This document shows, piece after piece, positions 33,266-53,804 of a stretch of 64,000 nucleotides of DNA. Within the stretch, counting starts at the first letter, position 1. The number at the start of each line of letters is the position of its first letter. The position numbers and the translations under genes were made by a program. The notes beneath the pieces were generated by a model. It ran no database searches and had not been told where the DNA came from. It saw nothing but the letters and a program-made list of their open reading frames with translations. Source of the DNA: a virus. The stretch is taken from the IMG/VR virus record IMGVR_UViG_3300045988_179268, positions 32,001 to 96,000 of that record; one strand, given 5' to 3'.

Positions 33266-33283
33266 AAGTTGGGGTTAGATAAG

Positions 33284-33336
33284 CCACCTAACGCTATGTC
33301 TTTAGAAAGTATCTTTAGACCGTTAGGTGGTTTTTT
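33284..33336 (+). terminator. Intrinsic terminator immediately upstream of the vWA gene
   Basis: CCACCTAACG / CGTTAGGTGG stem followed by TTTTTT. The 3' arm contains the only SD-like sequence (AGGTGG) for the ATG at 33341. Confidence 0.6.
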
Positions 33337-33340
33337 CTTT

Positions 33341-34138: not shown

Positions 34139-34184
34139 GGTATCCTTGACTGAATTGTTCTGTGTATTTTGGAAGGCGTGATTT

Positions 34185-35069
34185 ATGAGTGATGCGTTTT
34201 TGTATGACTGGTGTTTAGTGTCTGGTCGTTCCGTCCCGAAGCCTGTTTATCATGACGAGGAAACTAACCAGGATGCTTATGGTTCGTGGTGTGATGAGGC
34301 TGGGCGTGCTGTGATTGTTGCATGTGATGGGGCTGGTTCGTTGGCTAAGTCTCGCATTGGGGCACGCATTGTCGCTGACACTATTGTTTCTGAGGGGCGC
34401 GCCGCGCTTGAGAGGTTCACCCCTTCGGGTGATGCCTCTGAGGATGCTGAGGCTTTACGTGAGAGTATTCTTGCCGCGCTTGCTATGGCAATGAACACGG
34501 TGTGGGGTGCGCAGGATTCCGATGAGATGGGATGTACTGTTGCGGCGGCTATGTTCTGCGAGGGCGCATTTGCGTATGTAACTTTGGGCGATGCGTTTGT
34601 TCTGGTTGGCGATTATGCTGGTTCTACCCCTAAGTATCAGTCTCATGTCGAGATGTGGGATGCTCCAAATATTACGACGTTTACCACATCTGATAACCCG
34701 TACATATTAGTGTCCTGTGGTACGGGCGCTACTTGGTGTATGGTTGCTTCGGATGGGATGAAGAATCCTTTGGTTCGGGCGGCGACAGCTGACAGTGATG
34801 AGGCTATTGAGGAATCGTTGTTCCGTGAGGGTGATGATGGCGAACCTCCTCTGTATCTGGTGTTGTTCTCTTCAAAGCATACTGACGACTTTTTAGCCCA
34901 TTTGGAGCGTGAGAAGTATCTTGACGATGATACTACGTTTGTTATGGCTGGTTGTTTGAATAAGCCTGCTGATGGGTCTTTAAGGATGATTACTGAGTCT
35001 GCTAAGGCGAAGCTTGTCCCTGGTGATTATGGGTTCGTTGAACGTCTCCAGCTGGGCTTAGATAGTTAA
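34185..35069 (+). CDS. PP2C-family Ser/Thr phosphatase-like protein
   Basis: NQDAYG, VIVACDGAGSLAKSRIGARI, MGCTVAAAM, VTLGDAFV, VASDGM; PP2C-like Asp-containing strands in order. Confidence 0.6.
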   Translation: MSDAFLYDWCLVSGRSVPKPVYHDEETNQDAYGSWCDEAGRAVIVACDGAGSLAKSRIGARIVADTIVSEGRAALERFTPSGDASEDAEALRESILAALAMAMNTVWGAQDSDEMGCTVAAAMFCEGAFAYVTLGDAFVLVGDYAGSTPKYQSHVEMWDAPNITTFTTSDNPYILVSCGTGATWCMVASDGMKNPLVRAATADSDEAIEESLFREGDDGEPPLYLVLFSSKHTDDFLAHLEREKYLDDDTTFVMAGCLNKPADGSLRMITESAKAKLVPGDYGFVERLQLGLDS

Positions 35070-35151
35070 TTTTTGTCATGAGGGTGCTCACCTGTTCTAC
35101 CTTTCCGGTGGGCAGGGTGGGTACCCTCATCTTTTTTGAGGGGAGTTATTT

Positions 35152-37086
35152 TTGGCTGATTATATTGCCCGCTTAGCGGATGGGAAATCTTTCCCTGTTA
35201 GGCTGGAAGATTCACCGTTAGGTCGTGGTGGTGAAGGCGCTGTTTATGCCGTAAGTTCTGTAGGTTCTTCAACGTTGGGGTCTGCACATGATTTGGTAGG
35301 GAAGATTTACCACCATGACGAGTCTAAGCACGCACAGCGTGAAGCTAAGTGTTTGGCGATGGTTGCGAGTGTACCTCAGACTGATTCGATTGTGTGGAAC
35401 TTAGGTAACTTGTATGACACGAATGGCGAATTTGCGGGCTTCTTAATGAAGAGGTTGCAGATGGATGTTTACCGTAGTTTCATGGAGGTAGCTCATACTC
35501 GACATAGGCGCAAACGTTTCCCCGAGTGGTCTGTTATGCACGCCCTTCTTATGGCTAGAAACCTCGCTGTAGCTATTGACGCTGTACATACTGCCGGGCA
35601 TATGGTTGGCGATGTGAACGAGTCGAATGTTCTTGTGGCTAAGGACGCTACTGTGCGTATCGTGGACGCGGATAGCGTTCAGATTAGCGCGGGGGATAAG
35701 GTGTACCCCTGCGTGGTGGGTAAGCCTGAGTTTACTGCGCCTGAGATTGGCGAGGGTAGTTATGCGGAGGAACGCAACCGTAGAACTGTCGCTACGGACA
35801 TGTTCGCTTTTGTGGTGATGCTCTTTAATGCTTTAATGGGTAGGGCTCACCCAACAACTTGTAATTACAAAGGTGAGCATAAGGATGTTACAACGCTGAT
35901 TGATATGGGGGTTTACCCTACCTTTGTTCCAAAGTTACCGCGTGGTTTTTCGAAGTTGGATGAGCTGGAGTATGAGGCTATCCCGAGTAGGGTTCATGAC
36001 GTGATTGGGCGGGGTTTGTCTAGTGACCCTGCTAAGCGTCCAAGTTTCGATGAAGTTATCGCTGTTTTTGACGAGTTGTTTAAACGTGACGATGATGGGT
36101 ATGTTAATCTAACGCAGTGTTCTGTGTCGCCTTTGCATTGGTGGGATGCGCGTGATGGGGCTTCTTGTCCTATGTGTCGTTTCGCTTCCCGTAAGCCGGG
36201 CGCTGACATTTGGGGTGAGGATAAGTCTGCTGAGGACATGTCAGCTATTCTAGCTAAGGCTGAGAAGAAGCAGGCGAAGCGGAAAACAAAGTCAGCTAAG
36301 ACCACCCCTGGTGTTCAAGCACCTGGTTTGAAGGCTGTCCTCGCGAGGAAGAAAACTGTTGCCCCGCCAATACCAACGGGGCAAGGTACTCAAGGTCAGC
36401 CTTATCAGGGTGCTACACCTGTTCAAGGTGCTACCCAGCAGTCGGGTGCATCTCAGGGGAATACGGCGGCGGGTAGGTTGCCTGGCGCGCCACCAGATGT
36501 GCAGAAAGTGTCGGGCAAGCTTGCTGTCCTTGATGAAGATGGAAATTTGGTTGCCCGACCACCTATCTTAACTCTGGTTAAAGGTGATTCTTACCGTATT
36601 GCTTTTGATGCTTTGTCTGCTGAGAATCCCCGTATTATGCCGTGGGTGTCCTCGTACCGGGCGGTGCCTATTTGGTGGGTGGCGCTCCTTGCGTGTGTTG
36701 TTGCTTCGTTGGCGTGGTGGTTTGCCGCGCCGGGGATTACGGCATGGGTGGTGGCGGCTATTTTTGATGGCGGGGTTCCTGCCCATATCCTGCCTATTGT
36801 TGCGGGTGTCCAGTTTGCGATATGGGCTTTACCTGCGATAGCCGTTGGTTTGAGGTTCTTAAGTGGTCTGGTGTTATGGTGGCGGCGTGCCCGAGAGGTG
36901 AAGGAGAATGGTTATGGGGCGGTCGTTTTTGAGTCTGCCGGTCAAACTATTTTAAGTGTGGCACTTACGTCGCTGGTGTCTGGTATTCTTTTACCTGCAT
37001 TGTTACTCATTAATGTGCTTTTGAAGATAATCTATGAGATAATTTATAGTATCTTTTACTCAGGCGACTCTGCCAACAGGCGTTAG
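35152..37086 (+). CDS. Ser/Thr protein kinase with Zn-ribbon-like segment, Gln/Gly/Pro linker and polytopic C-terminal membrane domain
   Basis: GRGGEGAVYAV, VGKIYH, HMVGDVNESNVLV, IVDADS, GKPEFTAPE, CSVSP...CPMCRF. At least 4 hydrophobic helices after residue ~500. Confidence 0.75.
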   Translation: MADYIARLADGKSFPVRLEDSPLGRGGEGAVYAVSSVGSSTLGSAHDLVGKIYHHDESKHAQREAKCLAMVASVPQTDSIVWNLGNLYDTNGEFAGFLMKRLQMDVYRSFMEVAHTRHRRKRFPEWSVMHALLMARNLAVAIDAVHTAGHMVGDVNESNVLVAKDATVRIVDADSVQISAGDKVYPCVVGKPEFTAPEIGEGSYAEERNRRTVATDMFAFVVMLFNALMGRAHPTTCNYKGEHKDVTTLIDMGVYPTFVPKLPRGFSKLDELEYEAIPSRVHDVIGRGLSSDPAKRPSFDEVIAVFDELFKRDDDGYVNLTQCSVSPLHWWDARDGASCPMCRFASRKPGADIWGEDKSAEDMSAILAKAEKKQAKRKTKSAKTTPGVQAPGLKAVLARKKTVAPPIPTGQGTQGQPYQGATPVQGATQQSGASQGNTAAGRLPGAPPDVQKVSGKLAVLDEDGNLVARPPILTLVKGDSYRIAFDALSAENPRIMPWVSSYRAVPIWWVALLACVVASLAWWFAAPGITAWVVAAIFDGGVPAHILPIVAGVQFAIWALPAIAVGLRFLSGLVLWWRRAREVKENGYGAVVFESAGQTILSVALTSLVSGILLPALLLINVLLKIIYEIIYSIFYSGDSANRR

Positions 37087-37108
37087 AGTGGCTTACGGGT
37101 TTCCAGCT

Positions 37109-37152
37109 AAGTTGGGGGTTGCTTGAGTTTTTAAGTGACCCCCAACTTTTTG
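37109..37152 (+). terminator. Intrinsic terminator after the kinase gene
   Basis: AAGTTGGGGGT / ACCCCCAACTT followed by TTTT. Confidence 0.7.
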
Positions 37153-37165
37153 TAAGGAGTTAATA

Positions 37166-40266
<3,101 letters not shown>

Positions 40267-40302
40267 CGAAGCGCCATTACTTACTGACAAGCCAATATTT
40301 TT

Positions 40303-40336
40303 GAAGGCTGGAAGTTTGCTGTGAACTTCCAGCCTT
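40303..40336 (+). terminator. Hairpin after ligA
   Basis: GAAGGCTGGAAGTT / AACTTCCAGCCTT, 7-nt loop, then TTGCT. Confidence 0.65.
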
Positions 40337-40357
40337 TGCTATATTTATCAAACCGGG

Positions 40358-40386
40358 TTGCAAACATCAGCAATTTTCGGTATAAT
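40358..40386 (+). promoter_or_regulatory. Near-consensus sigma-70-type promoter
   Basis: TTGCAA-17 nt-TATAAT. A second TTGCAA-17-CATACT lies at 40436..40464. Confidence 0.45.
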
Positions 40387-41091
40387 TAACCTTTAATCCA
40401 ACTTGTGCAAGATTGTATGTTTCTGTCATCTATTGTTGCAAAACTTGACGGCTTGTATCATACTATAAGTACAGGCGAGGATGAATCTGATGTAGTTATA
40501 CATTATGCTAATCCAAGCCAATAATCGAATCAATGCTAAAGCATAGTCACTACTACCAGCCCCCCCCTTACAAGACATTTAAATCCATCCACCGTCCTGG
40601 TTGCAATTTTTGTAACCGCCCCATATTTTTTTTTGACGAGATGCAGATTTGAACCGTCTTTACAGGGCATTGAGGCTGGGAGAAGGATTGCCTTAGATAC
40701 TTGGTTCAACTATATATGTAACCCTAAGCGTTCCGCGAGGGGCTAGAGGTGCTGTAGGGTGCCTATAACAGGTTTTGCCTGTTATGAATTAAATGCAATA
40801 TTTAAACCTATCTTATCTCAGTGGTTGTTCCTTTGATTAGGTTCAGCCCGTGTATCTGAACTCATTTCTGAGGAGGATACACTCGGTTCTTCTTCACGCC
40901 CCCACAGTTGGGGATGCACTCTGATTAGCTAATTCATAGAATGGCTGGTCACTTCAAGGGTGTATCGGATTCTGTGGTGAGCCGCCCACGAAGTTGAACT
41001 AGAAATTTAGCCCACTTTACACAAGAAGGGCGGGCGGAGGCGCGTTTGAGCTCTGGGGACGGGGCGAGCGAGGGCACCCTTAAGGAGTATT

Positions 41092-41892
41092 ATGAAGAAC
41101 ATTTCCATTCGTCGTGCCGCTGTAGCTCTTGCACTTGGTGGTCTTTCCGTTGGGGCGCTTGCTGTTCCTTCGGCTAACGCCGCTGATTTGGCTACTTGGG
41201 AAAAACTCGCTCAGTGTGAGTCGGGTGGTAATTGGTCTATCAATACTGGCAACGGTTTCTACGGCGGTTTGCAGTTCACTCAGCAGTCGTGGAATGGTGT
41301 TGGTATGAGTGGTTCGCCGCATACGGCTTCGAAGGAAGCTCAGATTGAAGCGGGCGAACGTCTTCTTGCTTTGCAGGGTTGGGGCGCATGGCCCGCCTGC
41401 ACAGCTAAATATGGTCTTTCTGGCGCGGCAACACCTACGTACACTGATACTGGTGTAGCAAAGTCTGCCGCTTCTACTTCGGCGGTATCTAGCGCCGCTG
41501 TTGTTGCTCCTCAGAGCAATACTCAGACTCCGGTTACTCAGCCGCAGGCTCCTGTGGCTGTTCAGGCTCCAGCTGTTGCTGAGTCCACGCCGGTTGCACA
41601 GGAACCTGTTGTTGAGGCTCCGGCTGTCACTTCTGCTGATGCGGCTTCTACTGCCGCTGTTGAATCCGCACCTGTAACCCCTGTGGTTGAGCCTGCCCCT
41701 GTTGAGACGGTTAAGGCTCCTCGTGTAGCTTCTTCTACTTATCAGGTTGTTGCTGGTGATACGCTGTCTCTTATTGCTAACCGTCTTGGTGTAGCTGGAG
41801 GCTATCAGGCTATTGCGGATGCTAATGTTGATGTAATTTATGATGTGAACCTTATTTTCCCCGGTCAGGTTTTGACTATTCCGGGACAGTAG
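41092..41892 (+). CDS. rpf: Resuscitation-promoting-factor (Rpf) transglycosylase-like domain + Ala/Pro/Val linker + LysM
   Basis: Signal peptide, ATWEKLAQCESGGNWSINTGNGFYGGLQFTQQSW, C-terminal YQVVAGDTLSLIANRLG...IFPGQVLTIP. Confidence 0.85.
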   Translation: MKNISIRRAAVALALGGLSVGALAVPSANAADLATWEKLAQCESGGNWSINTGNGFYGGLQFTQQSWNGVGMSGSPHTASKEAQIEAGERLLALQGWGAWPACTAKYGLSGAATPTYTDTGVAKSAASTSAVSSAAVVAPQSNTQTPVTQPQAPVAVQAPAVAESTPVAQEPVVEAPAVTSADAASTAAVESAPVTPVVEPAPVETVKAPRVASSTYQVVAGDTLSLIANRLGVAGGYQAIADANVDVIYDVNLIFPGQVLTIPGQ

Positions 41893-41979
41893 GGTACAAT
41901 ATTTATATAACATATTTTTGTCCGACTTAGTAAAAATTATATGTTGAGTAGGCGGCTAAGGTTAGTCTACTTTCTCACA

Positions 41980-42023
41980 ACTTGTGCCCCTGAGTTATCG
42001 CAAGGTATCTCAGGGGCACAAGT
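41980..42023 (+). terminator. Hairpin after rpf
   Basis: 15-bp inverted repeat ACTTGTGCCCCTGAG / CTCAGGGGCACAAGT. Confidence 0.6.
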
Positions 42024-42067
42024 GTGTTTAAAAGCCATTTCGCGGGCTTTCCATATGAACACGCACA

Positions 42068-42114
42068 GAGGGTGCCCACCAGAAACTTGCAACGGTTTTC
42101 TGGTGGGCACCCTC
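42068..42114 (-). terminator. Hairpin after the minus-strand Rep-like gene
   Basis: Perfect 18-bp inverted repeat GAGGGTGCCCACCAGAAA / TTTCTGGTGGGCACCCTC. Confidence 0.7.
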
Positions 42115-42134
42115 TAGTTATGGAAGCCCTGCTT

Positions 42135-44726
42135 TTAGTAGTACATGATGGGGTACTCATCAGTAGGCTCAGGCTTAGGGTTCATGATACCGTCCAGGAC
42201 GGGTTTCCTGTCCTTAGCGCCATTTACCCATTTAAGGATAGCGGCGCGCGCCTCAGCTTCCTCATCATTACTGACAGGAGGTAGAGATGCTTCATCAATG
42301 ACTTCTGATTCTACCGGGTCAGCGTTAAAGTTCGCCAGGTACCCATCAAGGGTTTCTTCGGCATCGACATACTTGTAGTGTGCGTCCACTCTATCCCACG
42401 GCGCTAGAGTGGACGCGACGTTCTTAGGCATGTTGGTGCAAATTTCACGCTTCGCAGTGTGGGCAGGGGTGTCCTGACGCGGCGCAGTATCGCTGACGGT
42501 AGTGACAGGCTTCTCCGAAGCAGGGTTCACTACAGGGCGGGCAGGCTCATGTGTGACAGTTTCTTTTACTACCTTAACGTGACGCACAGGCTGAGGCTCG
42601 GGAACACTAACAGGCACCTCGGTGACACTCTTGGGTTTTGCCGGGCGGGTAGCGCGGGTTTCAGCAATGGTGCGCTTGATGTCCTTGCCAAAGTCTTCGG
42701 TGTAGAGGACGCGGCAGTAGTAGTCGTCACCCTTGGTGTATCGGCTTCCTTCGTTGGGGTACATGTACCCGCCGGAGGGTAGCTTAATGCGGACAGGCGG
42801 GAACTTAACACCCTTCTTCCACTCATTGTAATTATTGACGGGGATGATACCAGCCTGGAGTGCGTCAGAGTATGCGTAGTGTTCCGGGGTGTCCGCGTTC
42901 AGGGTAATGATGTAGTCCTCGTCCATGTACTTCTTGAGGAAGTCTTCATCGAGAAGGTCGAAGTTAGCTACAGCAGGGTTCCTGAGTAACGCCTCAGACA
43001 TGTAAACGGTGGAGGGTGCGCCGAAGTTACTGTCCTTACGTTTCGCAGGCTCAGTCTTCGGGGTAGCTTCACTGTTAAGGCGGGGGAGTCCGTCAGTGGC
43101 TACGTGAGGCTCACTCACGGGCTTGTCCTGGTTGGAGGTGTTGTTCTGTACGGCAGGCTCCTGGATAGCGCGTGCGGGGCGTACAGTAACCGGGGTTTCC
43201 CTCGGGGTATCCATGATAGACGGCTGGTTCTTAATGGAAGCTTCCACATAAGCCTGCCAGCTATTAACCTTCTTCATGTTGCCGTTGCGTGCGGAAGCGG
43301 CGTACCTGTCAATAATAGTATCGACAATACGCTCCCAGTCTTCACTAATTGCAGGAAGATAAACGCCAACAGCGCCACTAATCTTAGTAGATAGTAACGC
43401 AAGGTCTACAGCACGGTAAATATTGCCCTTACGGGGTGCGCGGATAGGGATAAGAACCTGCTCATCCTTAGCGGCAGACTCATTCAAAGTCTCACGAGAC
43501 ACAGCGCTACGAACAGCCTTCGAAAGAGTGTCACCTTTCTTCACCGCATGAGGGCGAACAGCCTTAACACCAGAACGATACGCCTGAACCATAAAGCCAG
43601 CAAAGCCCTTACGACCTTTGCCGCCGACAAGGGACACAACATCCTCAGCACCCTCAACCATCAGCAAAGAACGCACCGCATTCACCGCATTACGGTAAAC
43701 ACTACGCATCTTATGAACAGAGGAAGAGAACACGGCGAACTGGCGTGCTAAATGCGACCACGCAACCCACACCTTCGAAGTCTTAATGTTACCGCTACGC
43801 AACGAAGCCGCACGCGCCAACACAAGCGCCAACACATCCAAAGCAACAGCCGAAGAACGAACCAGCTTACTACCCCACATACCAGCAGGAACAGCAACCA
43901 CATTACCACTGTTCACATAGTCAAAGAACTCATCCGAAACACGAACAACCATGAACCCAGACTCATTACCCTCCAAGCTATACATGATGCCCATCGAAGA
44001 ATCCTCAACATCAGCGGCAACACTGAACGCATGAAGAAGCTCCCCACGCCCACCCTCCTGCGCACGCTCAAAAACAGCAGAACGCAAACCAAGGCACATA
44101 CGGAAAGTATCAGCAAAATGGCGGTACCCCTCAGCAGATAAAGCAGGCACACCAGCCAGGCGCGCCAAAGCACGCGGCTGAGAAGGAACCACAAACTCAG
44201 CAGAACCCGTCTCCAACACGCGAGAAGCAATAAACGCTAAGATACGGCGAGCCATAACACCCGAAGGCATCTCCAGAACCTCACCACCGCTAACGCTAAG
44301 AACAGGCGAAGGGACATGCTGTACAACACGTGCCAGCGAAGAACGCTCCCACACACCCTGCTCATTAAAAGCAGAACCAGCAGAGACAGAACGCGCAGAC
44401 ACCGGCAAACCACCATGCACATAAGCAAGCGGCAACATCCAAGCATCACGCTCAACATCTACACCAAGAACATCCTCAACAGACGCAGAATCCGGTAACA
44501 GGCAACCGTCAGAGTCTACAACACCATACGGACTGTAAGAACTACCCTGTTCACGCTTATTCTCAGCATGAGCAAGAACAGCGTCCTTACGTGCCCTCAG
44601 ATACAAAGAATCACCCGTGAAAGTCTTAGCAGACTGCACAGGCACAAAAACAGACGCAGACTCAGGTTCAACAGGAACCATCACCGCGTCTTCAAAATTC
44701 TGAGAGCCCGCCTTAGCGATATTCAC
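42135..44726 (-). CDS. Large protein with possible plasmid RepA/RPA-like initiator (winged-helix) region
   Basis: GTG at 44726 lies 5 nt after GGAAGGAGG (ORF extends to 44795). PSGVMARRILAFIASRVLETGSAEFVVPSQPRALARLAGVP...YRHFADTFRMCLGLRS resembles RepA_C/RPA-type initiators. Adjacent repeat region. Confidence 0.35.
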   Translation of the reverse strand: MNIAKAGSQNFEDAVMVPVEPESASVFVPVQSAKTFTGDSLYLRARKDAVLAHAENKREQGSSYSPYGVVDSDGCLLPDSASVEDVLGVDVERDAWMLPLAYVHGGLPVSARSVSAGSAFNEQGVWERSSLARVVQHVPSPVLSVSGGEVLEMPSGVMARRILAFIASRVLETGSAEFVVPSQPRALARLAGVPALSAEGYRHFADTFRMCLGLRSAVFERAQEGGRGELLHAFSVAADVEDSSMGIMYSLEGNESGFMVVRVSDEFFDYVNSGNVVAVPAGMWGSKLVRSSAVALDVLALVLARAASLRSGNIKTSKVWVAWSHLARQFAVFSSSVHKMRSVYRNAVNAVRSLLMVEGAEDVVSLVGGKGRKGFAGFMVQAYRSGVKAVRPHAVKKGDTLSKAVRSAVSRETLNESAAKDEQVLIPIRAPRKGNIYRAVDLALLSTKISGAVGVYLPAISEDWERIVDTIIDRYAASARNGNMKKVNSWQAYVEASIKNQPSIMDTPRETPVTVRPARAIQEPAVQNNTSNQDKPVSEPHVATDGLPRLNSEATPKTEPAKRKDSNFGAPSTVYMSEALLRNPAVANFDLLDEDFLKKYMDEDYIITLNADTPEHYAYSDALQAGIIPVNNYNEWKKGVKFPPVRIKLPSGGYMYPNEGSRYTKGDDYYCRVLYTEDFGKDIKRTIAETRATRPAKPKSVTEVPVSVPEPQPVRHVKVVKETVTHEPARPVVNPASEKPVTTVSDTAPRQDTPAHTAKREICTNMPKNVASTLAPWDRVDAHYKYVDAEETLDGYLANFNADPVESEVIDEASLPPVSNDEEAEARAAILKWVNGAKDRKPVLDGIMNPKPEPTDEYPIMYY

Positions 44727-45184
44727 GTGCGCCTCCTTCCAAGGTGCCATAGACAAAAAACTTTTTACTAAAACAGCAATAGTGTAACACACCAACGCAA
44801 AACCACCAAAACTAAGAATGCTCCCTTCATAAGATGCATCCCCAACCTTGGCGACAAAACCCAGGATAACATAGAGCCATCCTCATCAGCAAATCTTGCA
44901 ACTACCGCAACAGGTGACCTTAGCCAGCGATACCTAACCACCACCTACTCTTTGCTCCGTTATTTTTAAAAAACGTCAGCAGACTAACAGCCGCCGCCTA
45001 GAACCAGCAAACCCCACAACGGCAGTGCGTAAATCCTCCAAGCCCCGCCCACAAACAAGCCAAACAATCCTCCAAAAACCGCCACCACGGGATAATCTAA
45101 TCAATAATCTATAGTGAAACCCAACAACAAGACCGCCGAACCCCTTACAGGACAAGGGAACCAGCCGCCCCCCGCACTCGTGAC

Positions 45185-45268
45185 AAACTACCAAAAAGTC
45201 ACTCAAACCCCCAAAAACTACCAAAAAGTCACTACCAAAAAACCACTCAGAAAACCCTAAAAAGTCAC
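45185..45268. repeat. Iteron-like direct repeats
   Basis: Exact 19-mer AAACTACCAAAAAGTCACT at 45185..45203 and 45215..45233 (30-bp period). Partial copy AAAAAGTCAC at 45259..45268. AAAAACCACTCAG occurs twice nearby (about 45238 and 45362). Confidence 0.6.
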
Positions 45269-45504
45269 AAGAAAAACCTGGTAGTCAAAACCTCACCCAG
45301 ATAACCTAAATAATTCCCTTAAAGCCACCCGTCAGACCCCACTGACCATTCGAATAACAGCAAAAACCACTCAGGTGCCACTTTTGCTATGGCATATGCG
45401 CGCAACAAAAATATGCCGCGCACCTTTCCGCCTTGAATAACTCAGAGTGGAACCACTAAAATGTAAATGTCCCAACAAAATACGTCTAAGGAGAAACACC
45501 GAAC

Positions 45505-45822
45505 ATGGCAACCCCACAGATTACCGTCTACAGCAAGAACAACTGCATCCAGTGCAAGCAGACCGCACGAGTGCTAGACGGTGCAGGAATCACCTATGAC
45601 ACCTACAAGGTAGACGAACAGCCCGAAAAACTGGAATACATTAAGGGACGCTACCCGAACATCATGCAAGCACCCATCGTGACCATTCGTACCGAACACC
45701 CGGAACGCTACCTCAGCCTCCCCGGAGTTAGCCAGCACGAAAGCGACAAGAACGAAATCTGCTTCGCAGGCTTTATCCCTGACGTTCTCAAGGTAGCAAT
45801 CAGCGAATCCAGCGAACAGTAA
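45505..45822 (+). CDS. nrdH: NrdH-like glutaredoxin
   Basis: ITVYSKNNCIQCKQTARVL (CxxC) and FAGFIPDVL near the C-terminus, with an internal insertion. Confidence 0.6.
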   Translation: MATPQITVYSKNNCIQCKQTARVLDGAGITYDTYKVDEQPEKLEYIKGRYPNIMQAPIVTIRTEHPERYLSLPGVSQHESDKNEICFAGFIPDVLKVAISESSEQ

Positions 45823-45920
45823 CAGCTCCCCACACATCACATGCGGCACCCCGAAGCCATCAGGTAGGCAGGGGTGCCGCATGACTCTCTACGCACACCC
45901 AAAAGAAAGGTTTCGGCATC

Positions 45921-46367
45921 ATGAACAATGTCCCGCCACTCATCCTTGTCGGATACACCGCCCTCACCAACTCCATCAGCAATACCCTCACCTCTATGGC
46001 GGTCACAAACCGCCAAATTGAAGACTGGGCTTCCCAAACCGGGAACGGTAAAAACCGCACCCTTGCCACTAAAGCCGCCGAAGCCACCAATAAGATGAAG
46101 AATCTGCTAGAAGTTACTCAGCCTAAACAGGAAGCCGCCCACCGCGACCACCTGGAGCACGCCTCCCAAGAGCAACAGCAGGAAGACGGAAAGTCCACCG
46201 AAGAACTCATGGTCTTCAACAACCAGTACGACACCATCTTCAACGAATGGAGCCAGGTAGTCGAACAATGGGAAGAAACAAAGAAAGCTAAGCCAGCCAC
46301 GAAAGACGGTCTTCCAGCCCGATTCGGCTACGTCTGCCGACGACATGACTTCGGCACCTACTGCTAA
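45921..46367 (+). CDS. Hypothetical protein (148 aa)
   Basis: ORF on the C/A-rich strand, where stop codons are rare; weak SD. Coding status uncertain. Confidence 0.3.
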   Translation: MNNVPPLILVGYTALTNSISNTLTSMAVTNRQIEDWASQTGNGKNRTLATKAAEATNKMKNLLEVTQPKQEAAHRDHLEHASQEQQQEDGKSTEELMVFNNQYDTIFNEWSQVVEQWEETKKAKPATKDGLPARFGYVCRRHDFGTYC

Positions 46368-46410
46368 ACCACCACACTAACCGCCACCCTCCAGTAAAAA
46401 GGAAACGCAG

Positions 46411-48177
46411 ATGCGCTACAGCCAAGAACTCATCCAGAAAGTACGTGAAGCACACGACATCATCGACGTGTTCCAAAACGCCTTCCGCAACACCAAGAAC
46501 ACAGACGTTCAAATGAGTGGCGTAAACGGCAAAGCTCTCTGCCCCTTCCACGATGAAAACACCCCCTCATTCAACCTAAACACCGTAACTGGCACATACC
46601 ATTGCTTCGGATGCGGCGAATCCGGCGACGTTATCAGCCTCATCATGGAAACCAACGGCGGCAACTTCACTGACGCTATTGAGTACCTGGCAGAAACAGC
46701 GCAACCACCTATCGAGCTACCCAAAAGAAACTCCGACGAAGGCAACGTCACCAGCAATCGCCGCCTCAAAGAAATCACCGCCGCCGCATGGGACTTCTAT
46801 GTCAAGCAATACGCTAACCTGCCTGAGAGCCACCCTGCAAAAGCTCAGGTCACTAAGCGCGCCCTCAACCCAAACCTACCTCACTACGGATATGCCCCCG
46901 GCGGTAACGCACTCACCAAACACCTCACCCAAACCTACACTCCCCACGAGCTAACCCTCGCCGGAGTCTGCGCCCAAAACAAAGACACGGGCGAACTTTA
47001 CGACTTCTGGCGTGACCGCTTGATGTTCGCCATAACAGACATGCACGGAACCCCCGTATCATTCACCGGGCGCGCCCTCAACCCGGACGAAGAACGAAAA
47101 TATGTGAACGGACGCGCAACCCCCATCTTCGAAAAAGAAAAACTTCTCTATAACCCTAACATCGCTCACGCCAACCAGACCGCCCGAGCAACAAAAACCT
47201 GCTACATCGTAGAAGGACAGTTTGATGTCATCTCAATGTACGACAACGGATACACCAATGTGTACGCAACCAGTGGTACAGCCATCACCAACCAGCACAT
47301 CAAAACCCTGCAACGACTAACCGGCGAAACGGGGAACATTATCTACATTCTCGACGGCGACAAAGCAGGAATGAAAGCAACCGCCGCCGCATACCACACT
47401 GCCCCACACGCACAAGCGCAGTCGTGGGCAGTAACCATGCCCCCAAACATCGACCCATGCGACTACCTCCAACAATACGGTCAAACCAACTTCACCAAAC
47501 ACCTCAACACCGCAATCCAGCCGCTCACCAGCGCCGCCCTCAACTACTACGCGAACATCTACAGCCCAACCGCGTTCAACACCCAAACCGCGTTCCTCAC
47601 CGAAGCCGCAAAAATGCTCGCCAACACGCCAACACCAGCCATCAAACAACTCATCATCAACACCACCGCCCAATACACCCACACCAACACCTATCAAGCA
47701 GAAAAAACACTCGAACAACGCGCAACCCAAAACCGTAAACCCACAACTGAAATACCATACGAAGGAAGCGACAACACCACTATCACACACCAGTGGAAAA
47801 CACCCAACGACGAAACGGCATACCATACCACCAAAACCCTCATCGATGCGGGTGACAAACAAACCCTCGCCGCCCGCAAACTACTACACCTCGCCCTCTA
47901 CTACGGCGCATCCCAACGACTAATCCAACCAGAATCCTGGCAAGAACTACCCGCAACCATCCACCAGCTATACAACGAAGCCGTGACACTCTACCAAGAA
48001 GGAAAAACACTACACCCCGACAACTTCACTAACCCACCACTAGCAACCCTACTAGTAGCACCCACCCAAGCGGACAGCACCCATCTCACACCTGAACAAG
48101 TCACACGTGAGTTCGACACAACCCTCAAGATGCTGACCCGCGCAAATATCCGCAAACGCAAAACAGTCCAACGCTAA
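46411..48177 (+). CDS. dnaG: DnaG-type primase (Zn-ribbon + TOPRIM) with Thr/Asn/Gln/Pro-rich C-terminal region
   Basis: CPFHDENTPSFNLNTVTGTYHCFGCGESGDVISL, LMFAITDMHGTPVSFTGR, YIVEGQFDVISM, ILDGDKAGMKA. Confidence 0.85.
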   Translation: MRYSQELIQKVREAHDIIDVFQNAFRNTKNTDVQMSGVNGKALCPFHDENTPSFNLNTVTGTYHCFGCGESGDVISLIMETNGGNFTDAIEYLAETAQPPIELPKRNSDEGNVTSNRRLKEITAAAWDFYVKQYANLPESHPAKAQVTKRALNPNLPHYGYAPGGNALTKHLTQTYTPHELTLAGVCAQNKDTGELYDFWRDRLMFAITDMHGTPVSFTGRALNPDEERKYVNGRATPIFEKEKLLYNPNIAHANQTARATKTCYIVEGQFDVISMYDNGYTNVYATSGTAITNQHIKTLQRLTGETGNIIYILDGDKAGMKATAAAYHTAPHAQAQSWAVTMPPNIDPCDYLQQYGQTNFTKHLNTAIQPLTSAALNYYANIYSPTAFNTQTAFLTEAAKMLANTPTPAIKQLIINTTAQYTHTNTYQAEKTLEQRATQNRKPTTEIPYEGSDNTTITHQWKTPNDETAYHTTKTLIDAGDKQTLAARKLLHLALYYGASQRLIQPESWQELPATIHQLYNEAVTLYQEGKTLHPDNFTNPPLATLLVAPTQADSTHLTPEQVTREFDTTLKMLTRANIRKRKTVQR

Positions 48178-48180
48178 AAC

Positions 48181-48237
48181 GCTCAAATGGGGCTGGTCTA
48201 CAAGTAGCTAAAACTTGTAGACCAGCCCCATTTGAGC
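48181..48237. terminator. Bidirectional hairpin
   Basis: Perfect 25-bp inverted repeat GCTCAAATGGGGCTGGTCTACAAGT / ACTTGTAGACCAGCCCCATTTGAGC, 7-nt loop. Confidence 0.8.
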
Positions 48238-48246
48238 GTATAAAAA

Positions 48247-49440
48247 TTAACGCATCAGCTTAGCGACAGCAACAACTGCATCCACATATTCGTCGCCCAA
48301 ACGTCCATACTCGATAGGGCGAACCATGCCAAACCAAGCAGAAGGAGTCTCTAGGAACCTTACGACCTTCTCCGGTGCCCAACTCAACGCAGATAACTCC
48401 TGAATCAGCCGCGCCGCCGCTGGGCAAATCAGCCATGCATCCACAAATCCATCCATCTCATTTAGAATAGGGGAGAAATTGCACCGCGCAAACTCATACT
48501 CACCATCGACAACATTCATAACAAGCAACTCGCCACGGTCACCCATGCGCCTAACCTCATCAACACTTGCCCCTAAAAGGCGAGATACAGTCCTCTCACT
48601 AACCCAACACAAACTCCAATCAGAAGCCTTCCTGCCAGTGTCCTTGGCGCGGCTAAGTAAAACACTTTCCTGCATATGAAGAGCGTCCGCGACCTGCTCA
48701 AAAGCGTAATCATCGAAGCCGCCGCCAGCAGTCTCAACCACCAAAGCGTCAGCGTTAAACCCAGTGCCAACCAACGCCCTAACAATGCCCGGATTCGGGA
48801 CGTTACCCACCGACGTTACCCGCCAACGCCTTACAGATGAATCGGTGTGCCAAGCCAAAATATGCGCATACACATCAGCGATAACCAACGTCCTCAAATC
48901 CTTATCGCCAGACATCAAAAGCTCAGCTGGAGTGAGGAACCCGTAATCATCCTTCGGGTCAAACAAAAACGAAACAGCCTCCGCCACAGGAACGCCACTA
49001 CGAGCCAAAATCTCAGAACACTCAAATAACTCAGGGTAGAAAACCTCCATGCCCTCACCACAACAAGAGAACTGAGCACGAGGAAACACCAAGCCGCCAG
49101 CCTCTTCGCACTCTTTACCAAGGATGCTACCGTCGTGGTACAAGCGCATCACAACATCCTCAGGCACCCCACGCCCCTTCAAACTATCAACAGTCTCAGC
49201 ATATTTAGACAACTCCAACTCAAAACTCCAAGAATGGGCACCGCCACCCCAAGAATCCCTCAAACGAGAGCTAATCCACTCAGCAGGAAGCCCTAACAAC
49301 TCCACAGCAGGCGCAATATTCGCATACTGCCAATCCACGTCCGGCACCTTCACCAGCCCCAAAGAACGCAACCTCAAAATATCCTCAGCCTTAGGGAACT
49401 TAAAACCCTCAATGTTCCTGTTAAAAACGTCATAAAGCAC
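48247..49440 (-). CDS. Hypothetical protein (397 aa)
   Basis: A long ORF on the G/T-rich (stop-prone) strand is unlikely by chance. Two segments (TPAELLMSGDKD..., ETPSAWFGMVRPIEYGRLGDEYVDAV) vaguely resemble DUF2384-type antitoxin C-domains. Confidence 0.55.
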   Translation of the reverse strand: MLYDVFNRNIEGFKFPKAEDILRLRSLGLVKVPDVDWQYANIAPAVELLGLPAEWISSRLRDSWGGGAHSWSFELELSKYAETVDSLKGRGVPEDVVMRLYHDGSILGKECEEAGGLVFPRAQFSCCGEGMEVFYPELFECSEILARSGVPVAEAVSFLFDPKDDYGFLTPAELLMSGDKDLRTLVIADVYAHILAWHTDSSVRRWRVTSVGNVPNPGIVRALVGTGFNADALVVETAGGGFDDYAFEQVADALHMQESVLLSRAKDTGRKASDWSLCWVSERTVSRLLGASVDEVRRMGDRGELLVMNVVDGEYEFARCNFSPILNEMDGFVDAWLICPAAARLIQELSALSWAPEKVVRFLETPSAWFGMVRPIEYGRLGDEYVDAVVAVAKLMR

Positions 49441-49555
49441 AGCAAATATCCTCTCAAAACAACAACGTTAAGCCACTCACATTGTACCAAATACGCCATT
49501 CGCGCTATAGGGAAAACAGGATAAGAAATGTCGAAGTAGCGAAAGTAAGGATGGA

Positions 49556-52156
49556 ATGAACCAGGAAGCGCTAAATTACCAACGAGAAGGTAATGAGGTG
49601 CCCAATGATAGTCAGAAACCAGCTGAAAACTCGGCTGTAAACGACTTTGTGGGCAATCTGATATACACGCTCATCAAATGGGCGTTCATTATCATCGCCG
49701 TAGTGCTTTGTAGCCCAGCACTCATCGCCGCCACCATCATCATCAGCTGGTCATACTACTACCTGACCCGAAGGAAAATGATGCAAGCCTCCGAAGTGGG
49801 GTTATATATGGGCGGCACGGCGTTAGGCGGGTTACTTCTCTGGTTCATCTTAGATGTCCCGAAGAAGTTTGCCAGCGCCTTCAACTCACTGATGCAAGCA
49901 CCCGGCGAATACCTCTCACCAACAGGGATATTTGACCTTGTTGGCACTTTCAGTACACCCTTCACCATCGCAGGAATCATCCTGGGCGCGCTACTCGGAT
50001 GGGCACTCGCCGCCAAAATCCAATACGACTACAACCATAACGAAGAACTAAAGTACAATGACTCATTCTGGATGAGTGAGAAGAAATTTAAGTACCGCCC
50101 AACCCCAAAACAGCGCCGCAACCGCAACAAACTCGAAGAGGAAATCAGCGAAGGCGCTAACTTCATCCTGCCCAACGAACGCCCAGACATGTCGCCAGGC
50201 GTAGCATACGGCATCAACGAAGAATCAGGCGAAGGCGTATGGTTCACTGTGCCCGAAATTCCCCGCCACGTCATCAAAGTCGGCGCACCTGGTAGTGGCA
50301 AAACTGCAACCACCGAAAGCGAAATTCGCGCCAACGCAAAACTAGGAATCACAAGCATCCTTGTAAACATGAAAGCCGACCTCGGACTTGCCCGAAAACT
50401 AGCGAACTACGCCGCCGAAGAAAACGTAAACTTCTACCATTTTACACAAGGCAACCCCGCCACCGGCGAATACGATAACGCCTACAACCCCCACGGTCCC
50501 GCATACCTTGACCCATTCGCCGGGCTTAAAACAGCTGAAAAGCTGGACATTGCCATCGGCTTCCAGAAATACCAAGACGAGGCTCAGAAATACAAGAACG
50601 ACGTGTGGGCGACCCTCCAGATACTCCTCAAAGCTCTAGACGAACTAGAGGAATACATGAAGGAAAAAGAACGCACTAACCCCGCCGAATATGTCCTCCT
50701 GGCAGACGAACTAGAGCAAGCTGGAATCCCTTGGCATAACGGCGAGTTTAGGCGATTCTGTGGTGCCCTCATGTCCCCCGAAGTGCTACTCAACCACCTA
50801 CCCGAAGGCAACCTCACGGGCGCTGAACTACGCCGCCGAATCCTTGAAGGTGCAAGCGGTAACGTCAAAACATCCTGGGAAACTCCACGTGGCAACGTCA
50901 GCATCATGCTCAACTCAGCATACGGGCGCTGGCTTGGGCTTCCTCAAAATGGGGAGCCCTACATCGACTTTGACAAAATTGTCGCCCCTAACGCAACGCC
51001 GTCCATTGTACTGCTTGATTTCAATGCTGACTCTGAGGTTGAAGTCAGTACCGGCTTCGGTAAGATGCTTGCAAGCCTCCTCACCAGCATGTCATCACAC
51101 CGCCGCCGCGACGACACCCAAAAGCTGAACGTCATCCAAATTTTCTTTGACGAGTTCCAGACCATTCCGCTAACCAGTATCGCAGGTCTGCTGGAAAAAG
51201 CACGCTCCTCAAATGTTGGTATCTCCCTCGGACAGCAGAACCTTGAACAGCTTTACGAAAAGAACGACCCAGCGGCAGTGAACAGCCTCCTAGTGAATGC
51301 AGATACCCTTGTTGTACTAGGCGGCATGAAGGGTGGCGAAACCGCTAAACGCATCGTCACCCTCGCCGGAACCAAAGAAATTAAACGTTACAAAGTGGAC
51401 TCAAAGCGTGAACGTGTCCTTTGGAAGAACCTTATCCAATGGGACGATAACCGCCGCTACTACAAGTCTGTAGAAAAGGTCACCGTCCCCCGCGTCTCCG
51501 AAGAACAGCTCATTAATCTCCGCCGACCTAACCCAGACAAGGGAACCTTCTATACGGAAGGCATGATTATTCGAAAGACCCCGTACATCGACCCCATCAC
51601 AGGTGAAACCCGTGAAAGGATGGACGGCACCCTAACACACATCATCCTCCCTAAACAGGTACTCGAAAAGCTACCCCGCGTACCGTCCGAACCTGTCGTC
51701 CCACCGACTACCACCTACACCCCCAAACACTACCCTAAGCTAAATAAAAAAATCTCAAAGCCTCAACCTAAAACTAGTACTCATGAACAAACCAAAAAAC
51801 AGCAAGCCCCTAAGGTAAGCCCCCAACCAGCCGTGGTAAAGCCTGCACCTAAAGCGCGTCCAGTGGTCACGCCGCCAACAGCCACGCCGCCACCGCCGCC
51901 ACCACAGCCCACAAAAGCTACCCCGCAACCAGCAGGGAACGCTATGAACAAACCAAAGAAACCGCAACTAACCCAAGCCCCCGCGAAAGGACAAAACAAC
52001 GCACAGCCGAAAAAGCCACGGCTAACCCAACCCGCCAAACCCGCCGAAGAAGCACTCCCACCAGTGCAACTCCAACCACGCATCATGCGCGGAGTAATTT
52101 CTGAAAGCGTCCAGACCCGCAAAACCCAACAGACAAAGAAAGACGAGAACCAATAA
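49556..52156 (+). CDS. Type IV coupling protein (VirD4/TraG/TcpA-like) with Pro/Lys-rich C-terminal tail
   Basis: N-terminal TM helices, Walker A VGAPGSGKTATT, Walker B IQIFFDEFQTI, ISLGQQNLEQL. Confidence 0.75.
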   Translation: MNQEALNYQREGNEVPNDSQKPAENSAVNDFVGNLIYTLIKWAFIIIAVVLCSPALIAATIIISWSYYYLTRRKMMQASEVGLYMGGTALGGLLLWFILDVPKKFASAFNSLMQAPGEYLSPTGIFDLVGTFSTPFTIAGIILGALLGWALAAKIQYDYNHNEELKYNDSFWMSEKKFKYRPTPKQRRNRNKLEEEISEGANFILPNERPDMSPGVAYGINEESGEGVWFTVPEIPRHVIKVGAPGSGKTATTESEIRANAKLGITSILVNMKADLGLARKLANYAAEENVNFYHFTQGNPATGEYDNAYNPHGPAYLDPFAGLKTAEKLDIAIGFQKYQDEAQKYKNDVWATLQILLKALDELEEYMKEKERTNPAEYVLLADELEQAGIPWHNGEFRRFCGALMSPEVLLNHLPEGNLTGAELRRRILEGASGNVKTSWETPRGNVSIMLNSAYGRWLGLPQNGEPYIDFDKIVAPNATPSIVLLDFNADSEVEVSTGFGKMLASLLTSMSSHRRRDDTQKLNVIQIFFDEFQTIPLTSIAGLLEKARSSNVGISLGQQNLEQLYEKNDPAAVNSLLVNADTLVVLGGMKGGETAKRIVTLAGTKEIKRYKVDSKRERVLWKNLIQWDDNRRYYKSVEKVTVPRVSEEQLINLRRPNPDKGTFYTEGMIIRKTPYIDPITGETRERMDGTLTHIILPKQVLEKLPRVPSEPVVPPTTTYTPKHYPKLNKKISKPQPKTSTHEQTKKQQAPKVSPQPAVVKPAPKARPVVTPPTATPPPPPPQPTKATPQPAGNAMNKPKKPQLTQAPAKGQNNAQPKKPRLTQPAKPAEEALPPVQLQPRIMRGVISESVQTRKTQQTKKDENQ

Positions 52157-53385
52157 TGGCTATTAAACACGAACGCAACAATAAGCGACAGGTAAATCCA
52201 GTACAGCCCACAGACCAACCTATTACCTTCAACGAAGACGAAGACAGTACCCTATACGCCAAGAATAACAACGGCGGCGGCATCTCAGTTCTAGGCGACC
52301 CAAAATACGTGAACCTAAAGGACAAAGAGAAACGTGGACGCATCGTCTCATACGTCCTAGCAGGACTACTAGCCACATGCTTCATCGGGAACAGTGTATA
52401 CCAGTTCACCCTACCTAAACCGCCGAGCGACGCAAAAATTGCTTCCATCGCACGTTCAGCAGTAGGGGAGACGGGGTTCAACAAGCAAGCAGGCGAAGAC
52501 ATTGCAGTAAGCTACGTCAAAGCATACCTAAGCCTCAAAACAGACGAAACAGCTGAAAAACAGCTTGCCTGGTATCTTACAGGCGACAGTCTCTCATCAG
52601 CCAGCGACCCTGGCACATCGGGGAATATCCGAACAAGCACAGCAAACGCCGCACAGCAAGTTATCGGAACACCGCAAGTGACAAGGATTGCAGTACATAA
52701 AAACTCAGCCCTTGCAACATACCGAGTTGTGGCACTCGTCAAACCTGCCGCCACCGGAACTGGAACCACAGTGAAGGACGCGGCAAAAAACAATAACCAG
52801 AACGCGGAACTTAAACAAATCTCCATGTCTGTCACCGTAGCTTTCGACAAGGACACCTCGAAATACTACATCGCCACACCACACCCTTCTATCGTCCCTT
52901 CACTATCAATGGGCAAGTCCCAAGAACTAGTTAAGAGCAAAGGCATCCCTGGCGCAAAAATTCAAAATAGCGCCGACACTGATGCTGTTATTCAGGGCTA
53001 TTTTAAGGCTTATGTATCAGCAACCCTGGAAAAGCCAGGCGACCTATCACAGTATGTCCTTGATATTAAGAAGGCAACGGTTGCAACAACCGGGTTCGGC
53101 GGTCAGTACACCATCAACACCAACAGCATCAGCTACGAGGCATACCGCCAAGAAAACGGCGACATCATCGCCAAGGTGAACCTTGAGCTAATTGACGAAC
53201 TTGGTGGGAGCACTGACACCGACACCAAAGAGAGTGCGAAGCAGAACATCACCTATCCGGTAACTTACAAGGTGACTCTCGCTAAGCAGTCTAACGGTAA
53301 GTATCTTGTGTCTAACCTCGAACCGGACGTTTACGACACAGACGCTACCAACATTACCAAATACAGTTCTAGTACTAGTGAATAA
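52156..53385 (+). CDS. TcpC/Orf13-like conjugal transfer protein (TM anchor + extracellular repeats)
   Basis: TAATG overlap with the upstream gene. TM IVSYVLAGLLATCFIG. SYVKAYLSLK and QGYFKAYVSAT repeats are typical of a duplicated NTF2-like TcpC architecture. Confidence 0.45.
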   Translation: MAIKHERNNKRQVNPVQPTDQPITFNEDEDSTLYAKNNNGGGISVLGDPKYVNLKDKEKRGRIVSYVLAGLLATCFIGNSVYQFTLPKPPSDAKIASIARSAVGETGFNKQAGEDIAVSYVKAYLSLKTDETAEKQLAWYLTGDSLSSASDPGTSGNIRTSTANAAQQVIGTPQVTRIAVHKNSALATYRVVALVKPAATGTGTTVKDAAKNNNQNAELKQISMSVTVAFDKDTSKYYIATPHPSIVPSLSMGKSQELVKSKGIPGAKIQNSADTDAVIQGYFKAYVSATLEKPGDLSQYVLDIKKATVATTGFGGQYTINTNSISYEAYRQENGDIIAKVNLELIDELGGSTDTDTKESAKQNITYPVTYKVTLAKQSNGKYLVSNLEPDVYDTDATNITKYSSSTSE

Positions 53386-53446
53386 AACTCCCTGATATAT
53401 ATACAGGGACAATACTAGTATCTTAAAGAAATTGGAGTATATAACC

Positions 53447-53728
53447 TTGATTACCTCTATCGTCCTCCCTCTAGCGGCAATTGGTCTTAAGCAATGGATT
53501 TGTGGCATCATCGCAATCGTCGTACTCGCCGTTGCCGCTATCCCAATGATTGATGTCATTAAGCAGAGTAGCGTCAAGAAGGGCGCACTGCTCATCCTCT
53601 GCCTGCTTATGGTTGCGGTTGCTGTGTATGCGGCAATGAACTGGATTATCCCAGATAACGCATTCGTCAATGCCGCCGCCGAAAAGGTGGAGAACTTCGG
53701 TACAGACGCACTAAACCAGACAGCATAG
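53447..53728 (+). CDS. Small three-helix membrane protein (TcpD/TcpE or pilin-like T4SS component)
   Basis: TTG 9 nt after GGAG inside ORF 53432..53728; mostly hydrophobic. Confidence 0.45.
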   Translation: MITSIVLPLAAIGLKQWICGIIAIVVLAVAAIPMIDVIKQSSVKKGALLILCLLMVAVAVYAAMNWIIPDNAFVNAAAEKVENFGTDALNQTA

Positions 53729-53765
53729 CGCACACCATAAAGAAGCATAACTGCTTCTAAACCAA

Positions 53766-53804
53766 AGAAGCCCCTCACCATGAATCCAATGGTGAGGGGC
53801 TTCT
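53766..53804 (+). terminator. Hairpin inside the T4SS block
   Basis: Perfect 16-bp inverted repeat AGAAGCCCCTCACCAT / ATGGTGAGGGGCTTCT. Confidence 0.65.

Follow-up and report, generated by a model that had tools for sequence, protein, structure and literature searches.

An abrupt, conserved reversal of strand composition inside an initiator-like gene of a large plasmid-like element

Results and discussion

Initiator-like gene at the flip

The DNA analysed here, referred to as the window, is a stretch of 64,000 nucleotides at positions 32,001–96,000 of a 319,371-bp Joint Genome Institute contig (IMG/VR virus record IMGVR_UViG_3300045988_179268). Judged by its genes, the window appears to be part of a conjugative plasmid-like extrachromosomal element of about 320 kb and not of an ordinary chromosome. 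An initiator-like gene is located on the minus strand at 42135..44795, and within its coding sequence, about 75 kb into the contig, the strand composition of the DNA reverses sign. Windowed skew and change-point estimates placed this flip at 43180..43560, corresponding to codons ~410–540. In the left arm (1..43180) the top strand is G+T-rich, with the skew strongest beside the flip and weakening leftwards; in the right arm (43560..64000) the top strand is C+A-rich. Genes are nearly all on the plus strand in both arms, and 39 of the 44 long open reading frames (ORFs), on both sides of the flip, have this orientation.

The start of the initiator-like gene is probably at 44750 (MAPWKEAH) or 44726 (VNIAKAG). 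It is conserved across relatives as a gene of 860–890 aa, and the 38 homologues found, all of them metagenomic, could be aligned over the full length; the ORF is therefore real and uninterrupted. Conserved blocks were seen at residues ~115–405, 450–530 and 610–715. Sequence searches of Pfam, PHROG and PDB gave no match for the protein. A full-length AlphaFold model was poor (predicted local distance difference test score, pLDDT, 49.5), and its top 45 Foldseek matches were all RepE-class initiators. The model of residues 141–410 reached a pLDDT of 72 and a predicted template-modelling (TM) score of 0.69, and its best match was domains 2–3 of RctB (E 5.7e-5, TM ~0.5), followed by ~45 RepE54 or Rep-iteron entries (E 3e-4 to 3e-2). 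These models indicate that the predicted core is a tandem winged-helix fold, structurally homologous to the iteron-type initiators RctB and RepE.

Iterons and origin-like elements

Three iteron-like direct repeats, AGTGACTTTTTGGTAG on the strand of the gene, were found at 45185..45247 (minus strand), approximately 400–450 bp upstream of the initiator-like gene. The motif matched four times against 0.53 expected, and none of 100 shuffles reached four; no further iteron cluster was found elsewhere within the window. Upstream iteron-like repeats were also present in five of the six other lineages examined, whose initiator-like proteins share 43–76% identity with that of the window. The motif AGTGACTWTTTGGTAG occurs in 3–6 copies at the equivalent place in lineages L003, L005, L006 and L011, and L008 has a diverged form. 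The exception is L010, in which an inserted coding sequence fills the region upstream of the initiator-like gene; read by eye, the insert (~9300–9800) looks similar to the C-terminal zinc ribbon of TnpB/IS605-type proteins.

Between the iterons and the gene lies an AT-rich element (45092..45122), which may serve as an unwinding element or a binding site. A related AT-rich sequence, ACTATAGAT..GATTAGATTA, was read by eye in most lineages examined. A T6A5-type A/T tract upstream of the gene (44958..44985) is conserved in the window, L008, L003, L006 and L005, and may likewise be functional. No DnaA box within one mismatch was found near the initiator-like gene of the window. In L006, two perfect tandem DnaA boxes, TTATCCACA, are located at 9766–9790 between the AT-rich element and the initiator-like gene; perfect boxes were seen only in this lineage, which is also the one without a flip. 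The iterons are 1.7–2 kb and the AT-rich element 1.3–1.9 kb away from the flip. The iterons are candidate binding sites of the initiator. A Rep-like gene with iteron-like repeats, as proposed from the sequence-only reading, is thus upheld by fold and comparative evidence, though not by family membership.

Two strong hairpins with stems of 18 and 19 nt (inverted repeats, 41980..42115) separate the initiator-like gene from the convergent Rpf/LysM gene and look like bidirectional terminators. An AT-richer non-coding stretch is found at 40300–40870, between ligA and a lysM-Actino RNA. An independent short-read contig begins at 40414, and the contig of another relative stops in the iteron region; assemblies seem to break in this region.

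Size and position of the flip

The base counts of five 60-nt lines on which the flip had first been noticed were all exact on recount. The underlying claim, that the top strand is G+T-rich on the left and C+A-rich on the right, was borne out by windowed skews. In 2-kb windows, GC skew was +0.05 to +0.24 and AT skew −0.04 to −0.30 over 1–43 kb, and GC skew was −0.19 to −0.35 and AT skew +0.27 to +0.42 over 43–53 kb. In 300-nt windows the sign changed near 43.3 kb, as had been predicted (43100–43399, +0.04; 43200–43499, −0.04). The difference in keto (G+T) skew between adjacent 5-kb blocks had its window-wide maximum, 0.496, at 43,300. Shuffling of 100-nt blocks (n = 200) gave a mean maximum of 0.118 (standard deviation 0.020, largest 0.168), so that the observed jump lies ~19 standard deviations above the shuffles. 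The maximum-likelihood change point was ~43,450 (support 43,294–43,557), and the cumulative skew reached its maximum at 43,310, or at 43,184 when only third codon positions were used. The switch of sign takes place within ~0.4 kb inside ORF 42135..44726. It had also been suggested that the G/C component fades by about 61 kb; a fading is real at 61–63 kb but is only local, since GC skew is back to −0.13 to −0.15 at 63–69 kb.

Because the genes of the right arm are mostly on the plus strand and this strand is C+A-rich, their coding strands and proteins are loaded with A and C. The right arm encodes proteins enriched in T, N, Q and K, and the left arm proteins with more V, S, A and G.

The bias had been proposed to follow the DNA strand rather than the orientation of genes, and both third codon positions and minus-strand genes agreed with this. 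When codon and amino-acid usage was controlled for by analysing third codon positions separately by gene strand, the bias persisted. GC skew at third positions (GC3 skew) was +0.1 to +0.63 in plus-strand genes of the left arm. It was of the same sign, in the sense of the top strand, in the minus-strand genes of that arm: +0.39 in recA and +0.09 in recX (26005..27819, minus strand), which served as left-arm controls, and +0.33 in a sortase gene (5123–5956). Plus-strand genes of the right arm had GC3 skews of −0.25 to −0.68. The minus-strand control gene of this arm (48247..49440) had a top-strand GC3 skew of −0.38 and a third-position AT (AT3) skew of +0.72, its coding strand being G/T-rich.

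A mis-join of unrelated molecules was also considered. An independent Logan assembly was 100% identical over 40414–58177, and the intact ORF that spans the flip is conserved in 38 homologues; a mis-join is therefore ruled out. The flip is genuine, statistically extreme and conserved, and has no routine explanation.

Extent and nature of the skew

To obtain a profile with distance, the flanks of the 319-kb contig and relatives in IMG/VR were walked in 10-kb steps from −76 to +59 kb relative to the flip, an inspected span of ~140 kb in a replicon of 307–361 kb. In the left arm, GC3 skew was ~+0.4 at 0–15 kb, ~+0.25 at 15–30 kb and ~+0.1 at 30–45 kb from the flip, and in relatives it was flat at ~0 from −48 to −76 kb; the left-arm decay was repeated in one further lineage. 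In the right arm, the most skewed gene of the window is that of a DnaG-type primase (46411..48177, plus strand; GC3 −0.68, AT3 +0.54), beyond which GC3 skew was −0.4 and then −0.3. At +59 kb it was still −0.16 to −0.35 in relatives, where a minus-strand gene confirmed the strand basis. Over all of this span, at least 135 kb, genes stay on one strand. The skew is thus centred on the site, differs between the arms and does not extend uniformly over two replichores.

The G/C and A/T components shift jointly, so that G+T is exchanged for C+A. Such a keto-type pattern is that of mitochondrial heavy strands and is expected where single-stranded DNA undergoes deamination of C to U and of A to hypoxanthine (see also PMC3269012). 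Recent single-nucleotide polymorphisms of the right arm, taken from three 98.7%-identical relatives, had a top-strand T>C rate per site 2.9 times that of A>G, with G>A and C>T similar; this signal is modest, given the small numbers and its dependence on rooting. A context signature of an APOBEC-like or DddA-like deaminase was looked for and rejected: TC depletion was equal in skewed and unskewed DNA, and no dinucleotide context was seen.

Conservation of the flip among lineages

Relatives were oriented on the initiator-like gene before their skews were compared. The flip was found inside the same gene in L003 (59% identity to the window protein), L008 and L009 (76%), L010 (55%) and L011 (48%), and at third codon positions it fell at window-equivalent residues ~330–540. 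In L005 (47%) the flip is also within the gene, with the conjugation side almost unskewed and parts of the other side oppositely skewed. That the flip stays in one gene disfavours a simple antipodal meeting point of forks, because such a point would drift as replicons changed size.

Single genes in the two most distant lineages were skewed almost to saturation, next to unskewed neighbours. Genes with almost no G or T at third positions were observed in L006 (3206–4447, 7205–8959 and 16136–18918) and L005 (14673–16550 and 17559–18362). The TcpC-like gene of L006 had a GC3 skew of −0.96 and an AT3 skew of +0.95. Orthologues of the PP2C and kinase genes had opposite third-position skews in different lineages, the PP2C gene having −0.91/+0.86 (GC3/AT3) in L006 and +0.55/−0.77 in L003. 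The mixture of hyper-skewed and unskewed DNA suggests a recombination mosaic. The mutational asymmetry appears to be very strong and lineage-dependent, and its products appear to have been shuffled by recombination.

Interpretation of the flip

The top strand changes from G/T-rich to C/A-rich at the flip, which is a maximum of cumulative skew and, as first pointed out from the sequence, a terminus-like polarity. By the usual rule the leading strand, which has the sense of the lagging-strand template, is G-rich (PMC3269012). The conflict that had been noted between this polarity and the neighbouring Rep-like gene and iterons is real, and it has become stronger with the RctB/RepE-like fold and the conservation of the iterons.

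We tentatively favour the explanation that the site is a fixed zone of fork arrival, stalling, or resection and termination beside an initiator-bound origin, marked by deamination of long-lived single-stranded DNA. Deamination of C and A in single-stranded DNA would enrich G+T on the exposed strand, which would be the top strand left of the site and the bottom strand right of it. On either side, the 5′-to-3′ direction of the G+T-rich strand is towards the site. This geometry would fit the lagging-strand templates of forks converging on the site, and equally the strands left single-stranded after nascent or 5′ strands had been resected from a stalled or broken fork. Polarity and geometry together lead us to read the site as a zone of fork arrival and not as a canonical bidirectional start of leading strands. 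The peak at the flip and the decay over tens of kb could result from single-stranded DNA persisting behind waiting or processed forks. In the right arm, where the skew is stronger and extends further, forks would run head-on into dozens of genes that share one orientation. The recombination and break-repair genes of the element would suit stalling or breakage at the site. Why such a zone should be in the initiator-like gene might be explained by termination close to the origin, by a barrier of initiator bound to DNA, or by forks colliding head-on with transcription of this gene, the only one in the opposite orientation. We infer deamination as the cause, and likewise the direction of the forks, their stalling or resection and the position of the active origin.

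Several points weigh against a fork-arrival zone. The flip is in an initiator-like gene beside conserved iterons, where an origin would be expected, and stalling by itself does not explain this placement. The most distant lineage, L006 (43% identity), has the gene, the iterons and two DnaA boxes but no flip, and among the lineages that have one its estimated position differs by ~600 bp, which makes it a zone rather than a point. In L005 and L006, near-saturated skew alternates gene by gene with unskewed genes, and such patches fit a simple fork model only if recombination between lineages is invoked. No opposite, origin-type switch of sign was found between −76 and +59 kb. A generic dif-like pattern gave no site within 42–46 kb, and its matches across the window were those expected by chance. 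No Tus-like, RTP-like or other terminator protein was recognised in Pfam- and PHROG-type scans, and no hairpins or inverted repeats were present in the flip zone (42900–43900). Gene orientation is convergent neither at the site nor in its flanks.

Many of the same features would be accommodated if the site were an active bidirectional origin, in the initiator-like gene or just downstream of the iterons, with an inverted skew polarity such that the strands of leading sense are C+A-rich. This could arise if leading-strand templates stayed single-stranded near the origin, or if a replisome with a split DnaE had an unusual error asymmetry. We regard it as possible but doubtful. In its favour are the RctB/RepE-like fold, the conserved iterons, AT-rich element and A/T tract, the DnaA boxes of L006, the adjoining primase gene, and a flip that is fixed in the initiator-like gene in most lineages. 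The skew also peaks at the site and decays outwards, as for an origin-proximal effect, and the element encodes a polymerase, a clamp-loader subunit, a primase, a helicase and a ligase. On this view, L006 could represent a variant with unidirectional replication that runs in the direction of all its genes. We know of no mechanism, however, that inverts the polarity of skew. The flip is 1.3–1.9 kb off the AT-rich element, the weaker and shorter arm would be the head-on one, which is the reverse of expectation, and a flat zero skew from −48 to −76 kb would be hard to obtain. The polarity is also contrary to a near-universal rule (PMC3269012).

In a bolder form of this proposal, the flip would mark the true origin of a 300-kb replicon with an inverted asymmetry of mitochondrial magnitude. 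The element's own replisome would replicate it asynchronously, leaving tens of kb of leading-strand template, or one parental strand, single-stranded for long periods, and deamination would proceed near to saturation and reshape the proteins. This we consider rather unlikely.

A third possibility is that the discontinuity marks the start and end of a unidirectional single-strand process, either conjugative transfer from a nick at an origin of transfer (oriT) or rolling-circle-like displacement. Skew would then follow a sawtooth with one abrupt jump and a gradual crossing of zero elsewhere. The first gene of the type IV secretion cluster is 6 kb from the flip, and over at least 135 kb spanning the site the genes have a common orientation, as they do around the oriT of F-type plasmids, in which the transferred strand is the template strand. 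A single monotonic ramp around the circle could accommodate the values observed, which start at −0.68 immediately right of the flip, are −0.3 at +59 kb and 0 between −76 and −48 kb, and reach +0.4 immediately left of the flip. Under standard kinetics, however, the DNA displaced first remains single-stranded for the longest time, and the sign should then be opposite on both sides, so that the fit needs ad hoc assumptions. In addition, no relaxase family was recognised from −5 to +73 kb, and no nic-like inverted repeat at 42900–43900. Inocles, giant extrachromosomal elements of oral Streptococcus, were lost on liquid culture (PMC12340149), which might reflect a dependence on frequent transfer. 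On balance, an explanation by transfer or displacement is improbable.

The remaining explanations are far less credible. For a linear, protein-primed replicon with two strand-displacement forks that start from its ends and meet at the site, which the sequence-only reading had put forward, the sign of skew on each side would be right, and linear plasmids are frequent in actinobacteria. Such a replicon should have zero skew at the meeting point and a rise towards the ends, but the observed skew peaks at the flip and weakens away from it; the transition of 0.4 kb is too sharp, and the offset of the flip is ~75 kb in the 319-kb contig and varies among other contigs. This model is therefore disfavoured and very unlikely. 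Just as unlikely is an origin of the bias in gene-level codon or amino-acid usage, or in transcription-associated mutation of two differently expressed modules. The flip does separate a module of replication, repair and cargo genes from the conjugation module, but genes that are co-oriented have opposite skews, minus-strand genes follow the strand and not the coding sense, the switch occurs within one gene, and PP2C and kinase orthologues are oppositely skewed among lineages; the third-position and minus-strand controls largely refute this model. Least probable of all is a chimeric assembly, or the recent joining of DNAs of different composition by fusion or inversion: only the abruptness of the change speaks for it. 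Against it, the site is reproduced identically in an independent assembly and is covered by an intact conserved ORF, the flip is shared by lineages at 47–76% protein identity, a divergence that would erase an inherited difference, and an inversion would have reversed gene orientation, which is uniform.

Gene content, family and host

Genes identified to the left of the flip encode a deoxynucleoside monophosphate kinase, sortases, an S26 signal peptidase, a PIF1/RecD-like helicase, a MazG-like protein, two Mre11/SbcD-like phosphoesterases (10834–12973), a PD-(D/E)XK nuclease, LigA and an Rpf/LysM protein. To the right are genes for an NrdH-like glutaredoxin, the DnaG primase, a VirD4-type coupling protein, TcpC-like and VirB4-like proteins and a cell-wall hydrolase. 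The VirD4/TraG-type coupling protein gene (49556..52156, plus strand) opens the type IV secretion (conjugation) cluster, with the TcpC-like and VirB4-like genes as neighbours. No tRNA genes were found in the window.

The gene for DnaE, the alpha subunit of DNA polymerase III, is split into two ORFs. ORF 15250–16761 encodes the PHP domain together with ~100 initial positions of the alpha NTPase domain, and ORF 18016–20730 encodes the remainder; a clamp-loader-type AAA gene (16783–18012) lies between them, and all three are co-oriented. The same arrangement also begins in a 58%-related lineage. The repair genes (24933–40266, with an extension at 66139–68409) comprise recA, recX and genes for a PD-(D/E)XK nuclease, NAD-dependent LigA, an SMC_N/SbcC-like protein and a small FtsK/SpoIIIE-like ATPase; with the two phosphoesterases, this is an unusually complete recombination and repair set for a plasmid.

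A cluster of sortase, VWA-domain, PP2C and Ser/Thr kinase genes (31856–37086) was present in all lineages examined. A search with the sortase for dispersed paralogues returned orthologues only. A lysM-Actino cis-regulatory RNA (RF03090; 155 bits, E 4e-38) was found at 40873–41091, directly upstream of the Rpf-transglycosylase/LysM gene (41092–41892); it is an actinobacterial regulatory motif on a mobile element. Two genes with SocA/Panacea (antitoxin-type) domains occur only in the L006/L007 lineage, between the initiator-like and Rpf genes (L006 12156–13603). About 70 kb left of the flip, in the relative L127 (IMGVR_UViG_3300045988_174371), a 1167-aa ORF (3699–7202) has an N-terminus that is SecA-like by eye. 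If this assignment is real, the element encodes an accessory secretion ATPase beside sortases and large surface proteins.

Relatives were found only in metagenomes, the labelled examples being human oral and Human Microbiome Project samples, and the longest contigs are 195–440 kb. No match was found in PLSDB (by DNA, and by protein for two genes) or among INPHARED phages, and GTDB representative genomes had no relative of the initiator-like protein. RecA was closest to that of Rothia (77%), followed by other Actinomycetes, and the G+C content of the element is ~50%. The host is probably a Rothia-like oral actinobacterium. The relatives form a family of conjugative elements of 280–440 kb with their own replisome and RecA; we found no published description of it, and it appears to be undescribed.

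Comparison with known systems

The switch of skew at a bacterial terminus, which is a cumulative maximum often located at dif, is the nearest parallel in form: it has the same sign, follows the strand, is visible at third codon positions and is sharp. The flip described here differs in that it is within an initiator-like gene beside iterons, has no dif-like site and is not a point of gene convergence. It is also several-fold larger, and it peaks at the site and falls to zero on one side with distance.

In its genes and repeats the locus resembles the origins of mini-F (RepE/ori2) and of Vibrio cholerae chromosome 2 (RctB/ori2), which likewise have an initiator with a tandem winged-helix core and upstream direct repeats with an AT-rich element. 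In contrast to these, the protein here has no sequence-family match, is much longer and has extra conserved domains, the polarity of skew is reversed (a cumulative maximum, not a minimum), and the flip is 1.7–2 kb inside the gene.

Resected double-strand breaks in yeast and in cancers leave strand-coordinated clusters of mutations, of C>T type on the 3′-ending strand, with a switch of strand at the site and a decay with the length of resection. Those clusters are single somatic events, whereas a fixed site of a plasmid would here have reached the pattern as a steady state of evolution, with an additional A>G-type bias.

Inocles, the streptococcal elements mentioned above, have a G+C content of 24–32% (Kiguchi et al. 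2025, PMC12340149). They share with the present family a saliva or oral habitat, a similar size, VirB4/VirD4, sortases, an S26 signal peptidase, DnaE, a RecD-like helicase and an NrdH-like protein. No match to InoC (PF13814) was found among the ORFs scanned, and membership of the Inocles was rejected, given a G+C content of ~50% against 24–32%, a RecA nearest to Rothia and the lysM-Actino RNA. From G+C content and host markers, therefore, the family is analogous to, but distinct from, the Inocles. The origin and terminus of Inocles were guessed from GC skew only, and the orientation of ORFs was reported to switch there (PMC12340149); ORF orientation does not switch at the skew site here. Calling origins and termini from switches of skew is routine for giant elements and for plasmids assembled from metagenomes, and was done in the Inocle study. 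In the present family a very strong, conserved switch has a polarity at odds with the genes and repeats of the same locus. Either skew is an unsafe guide to origins and termini in elements of this kind, or their replication is stalled, ended or processed at the origin itself in a manner not yet described.

In magnitude, the closest comparison is vertebrate mitochondrial DNA, which also has a G+T-rich and a C+A-rich strand, third-position skew near saturation (to −0.96/+0.95 in L006 here) and distorted amino-acid usage. The mitochondrial asymmetry is attributed to deamination of long-lived single-stranded DNA (see also PMC3269012). There, one strand is affected all the way round and no change of sign occurs, whereas the present replicon is bacterial, 300 kb in size, and reverses sign at one site. 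A bias of this size, with third-position skews of 0.7 in the window and ~0.95 in relatives and with proteins visibly loaded with A/C-only codons, is unusual. It points to single-stranded DNA that persists for exceptionally long in a giant plasmid, the host being a common bacterium of the human mouth.

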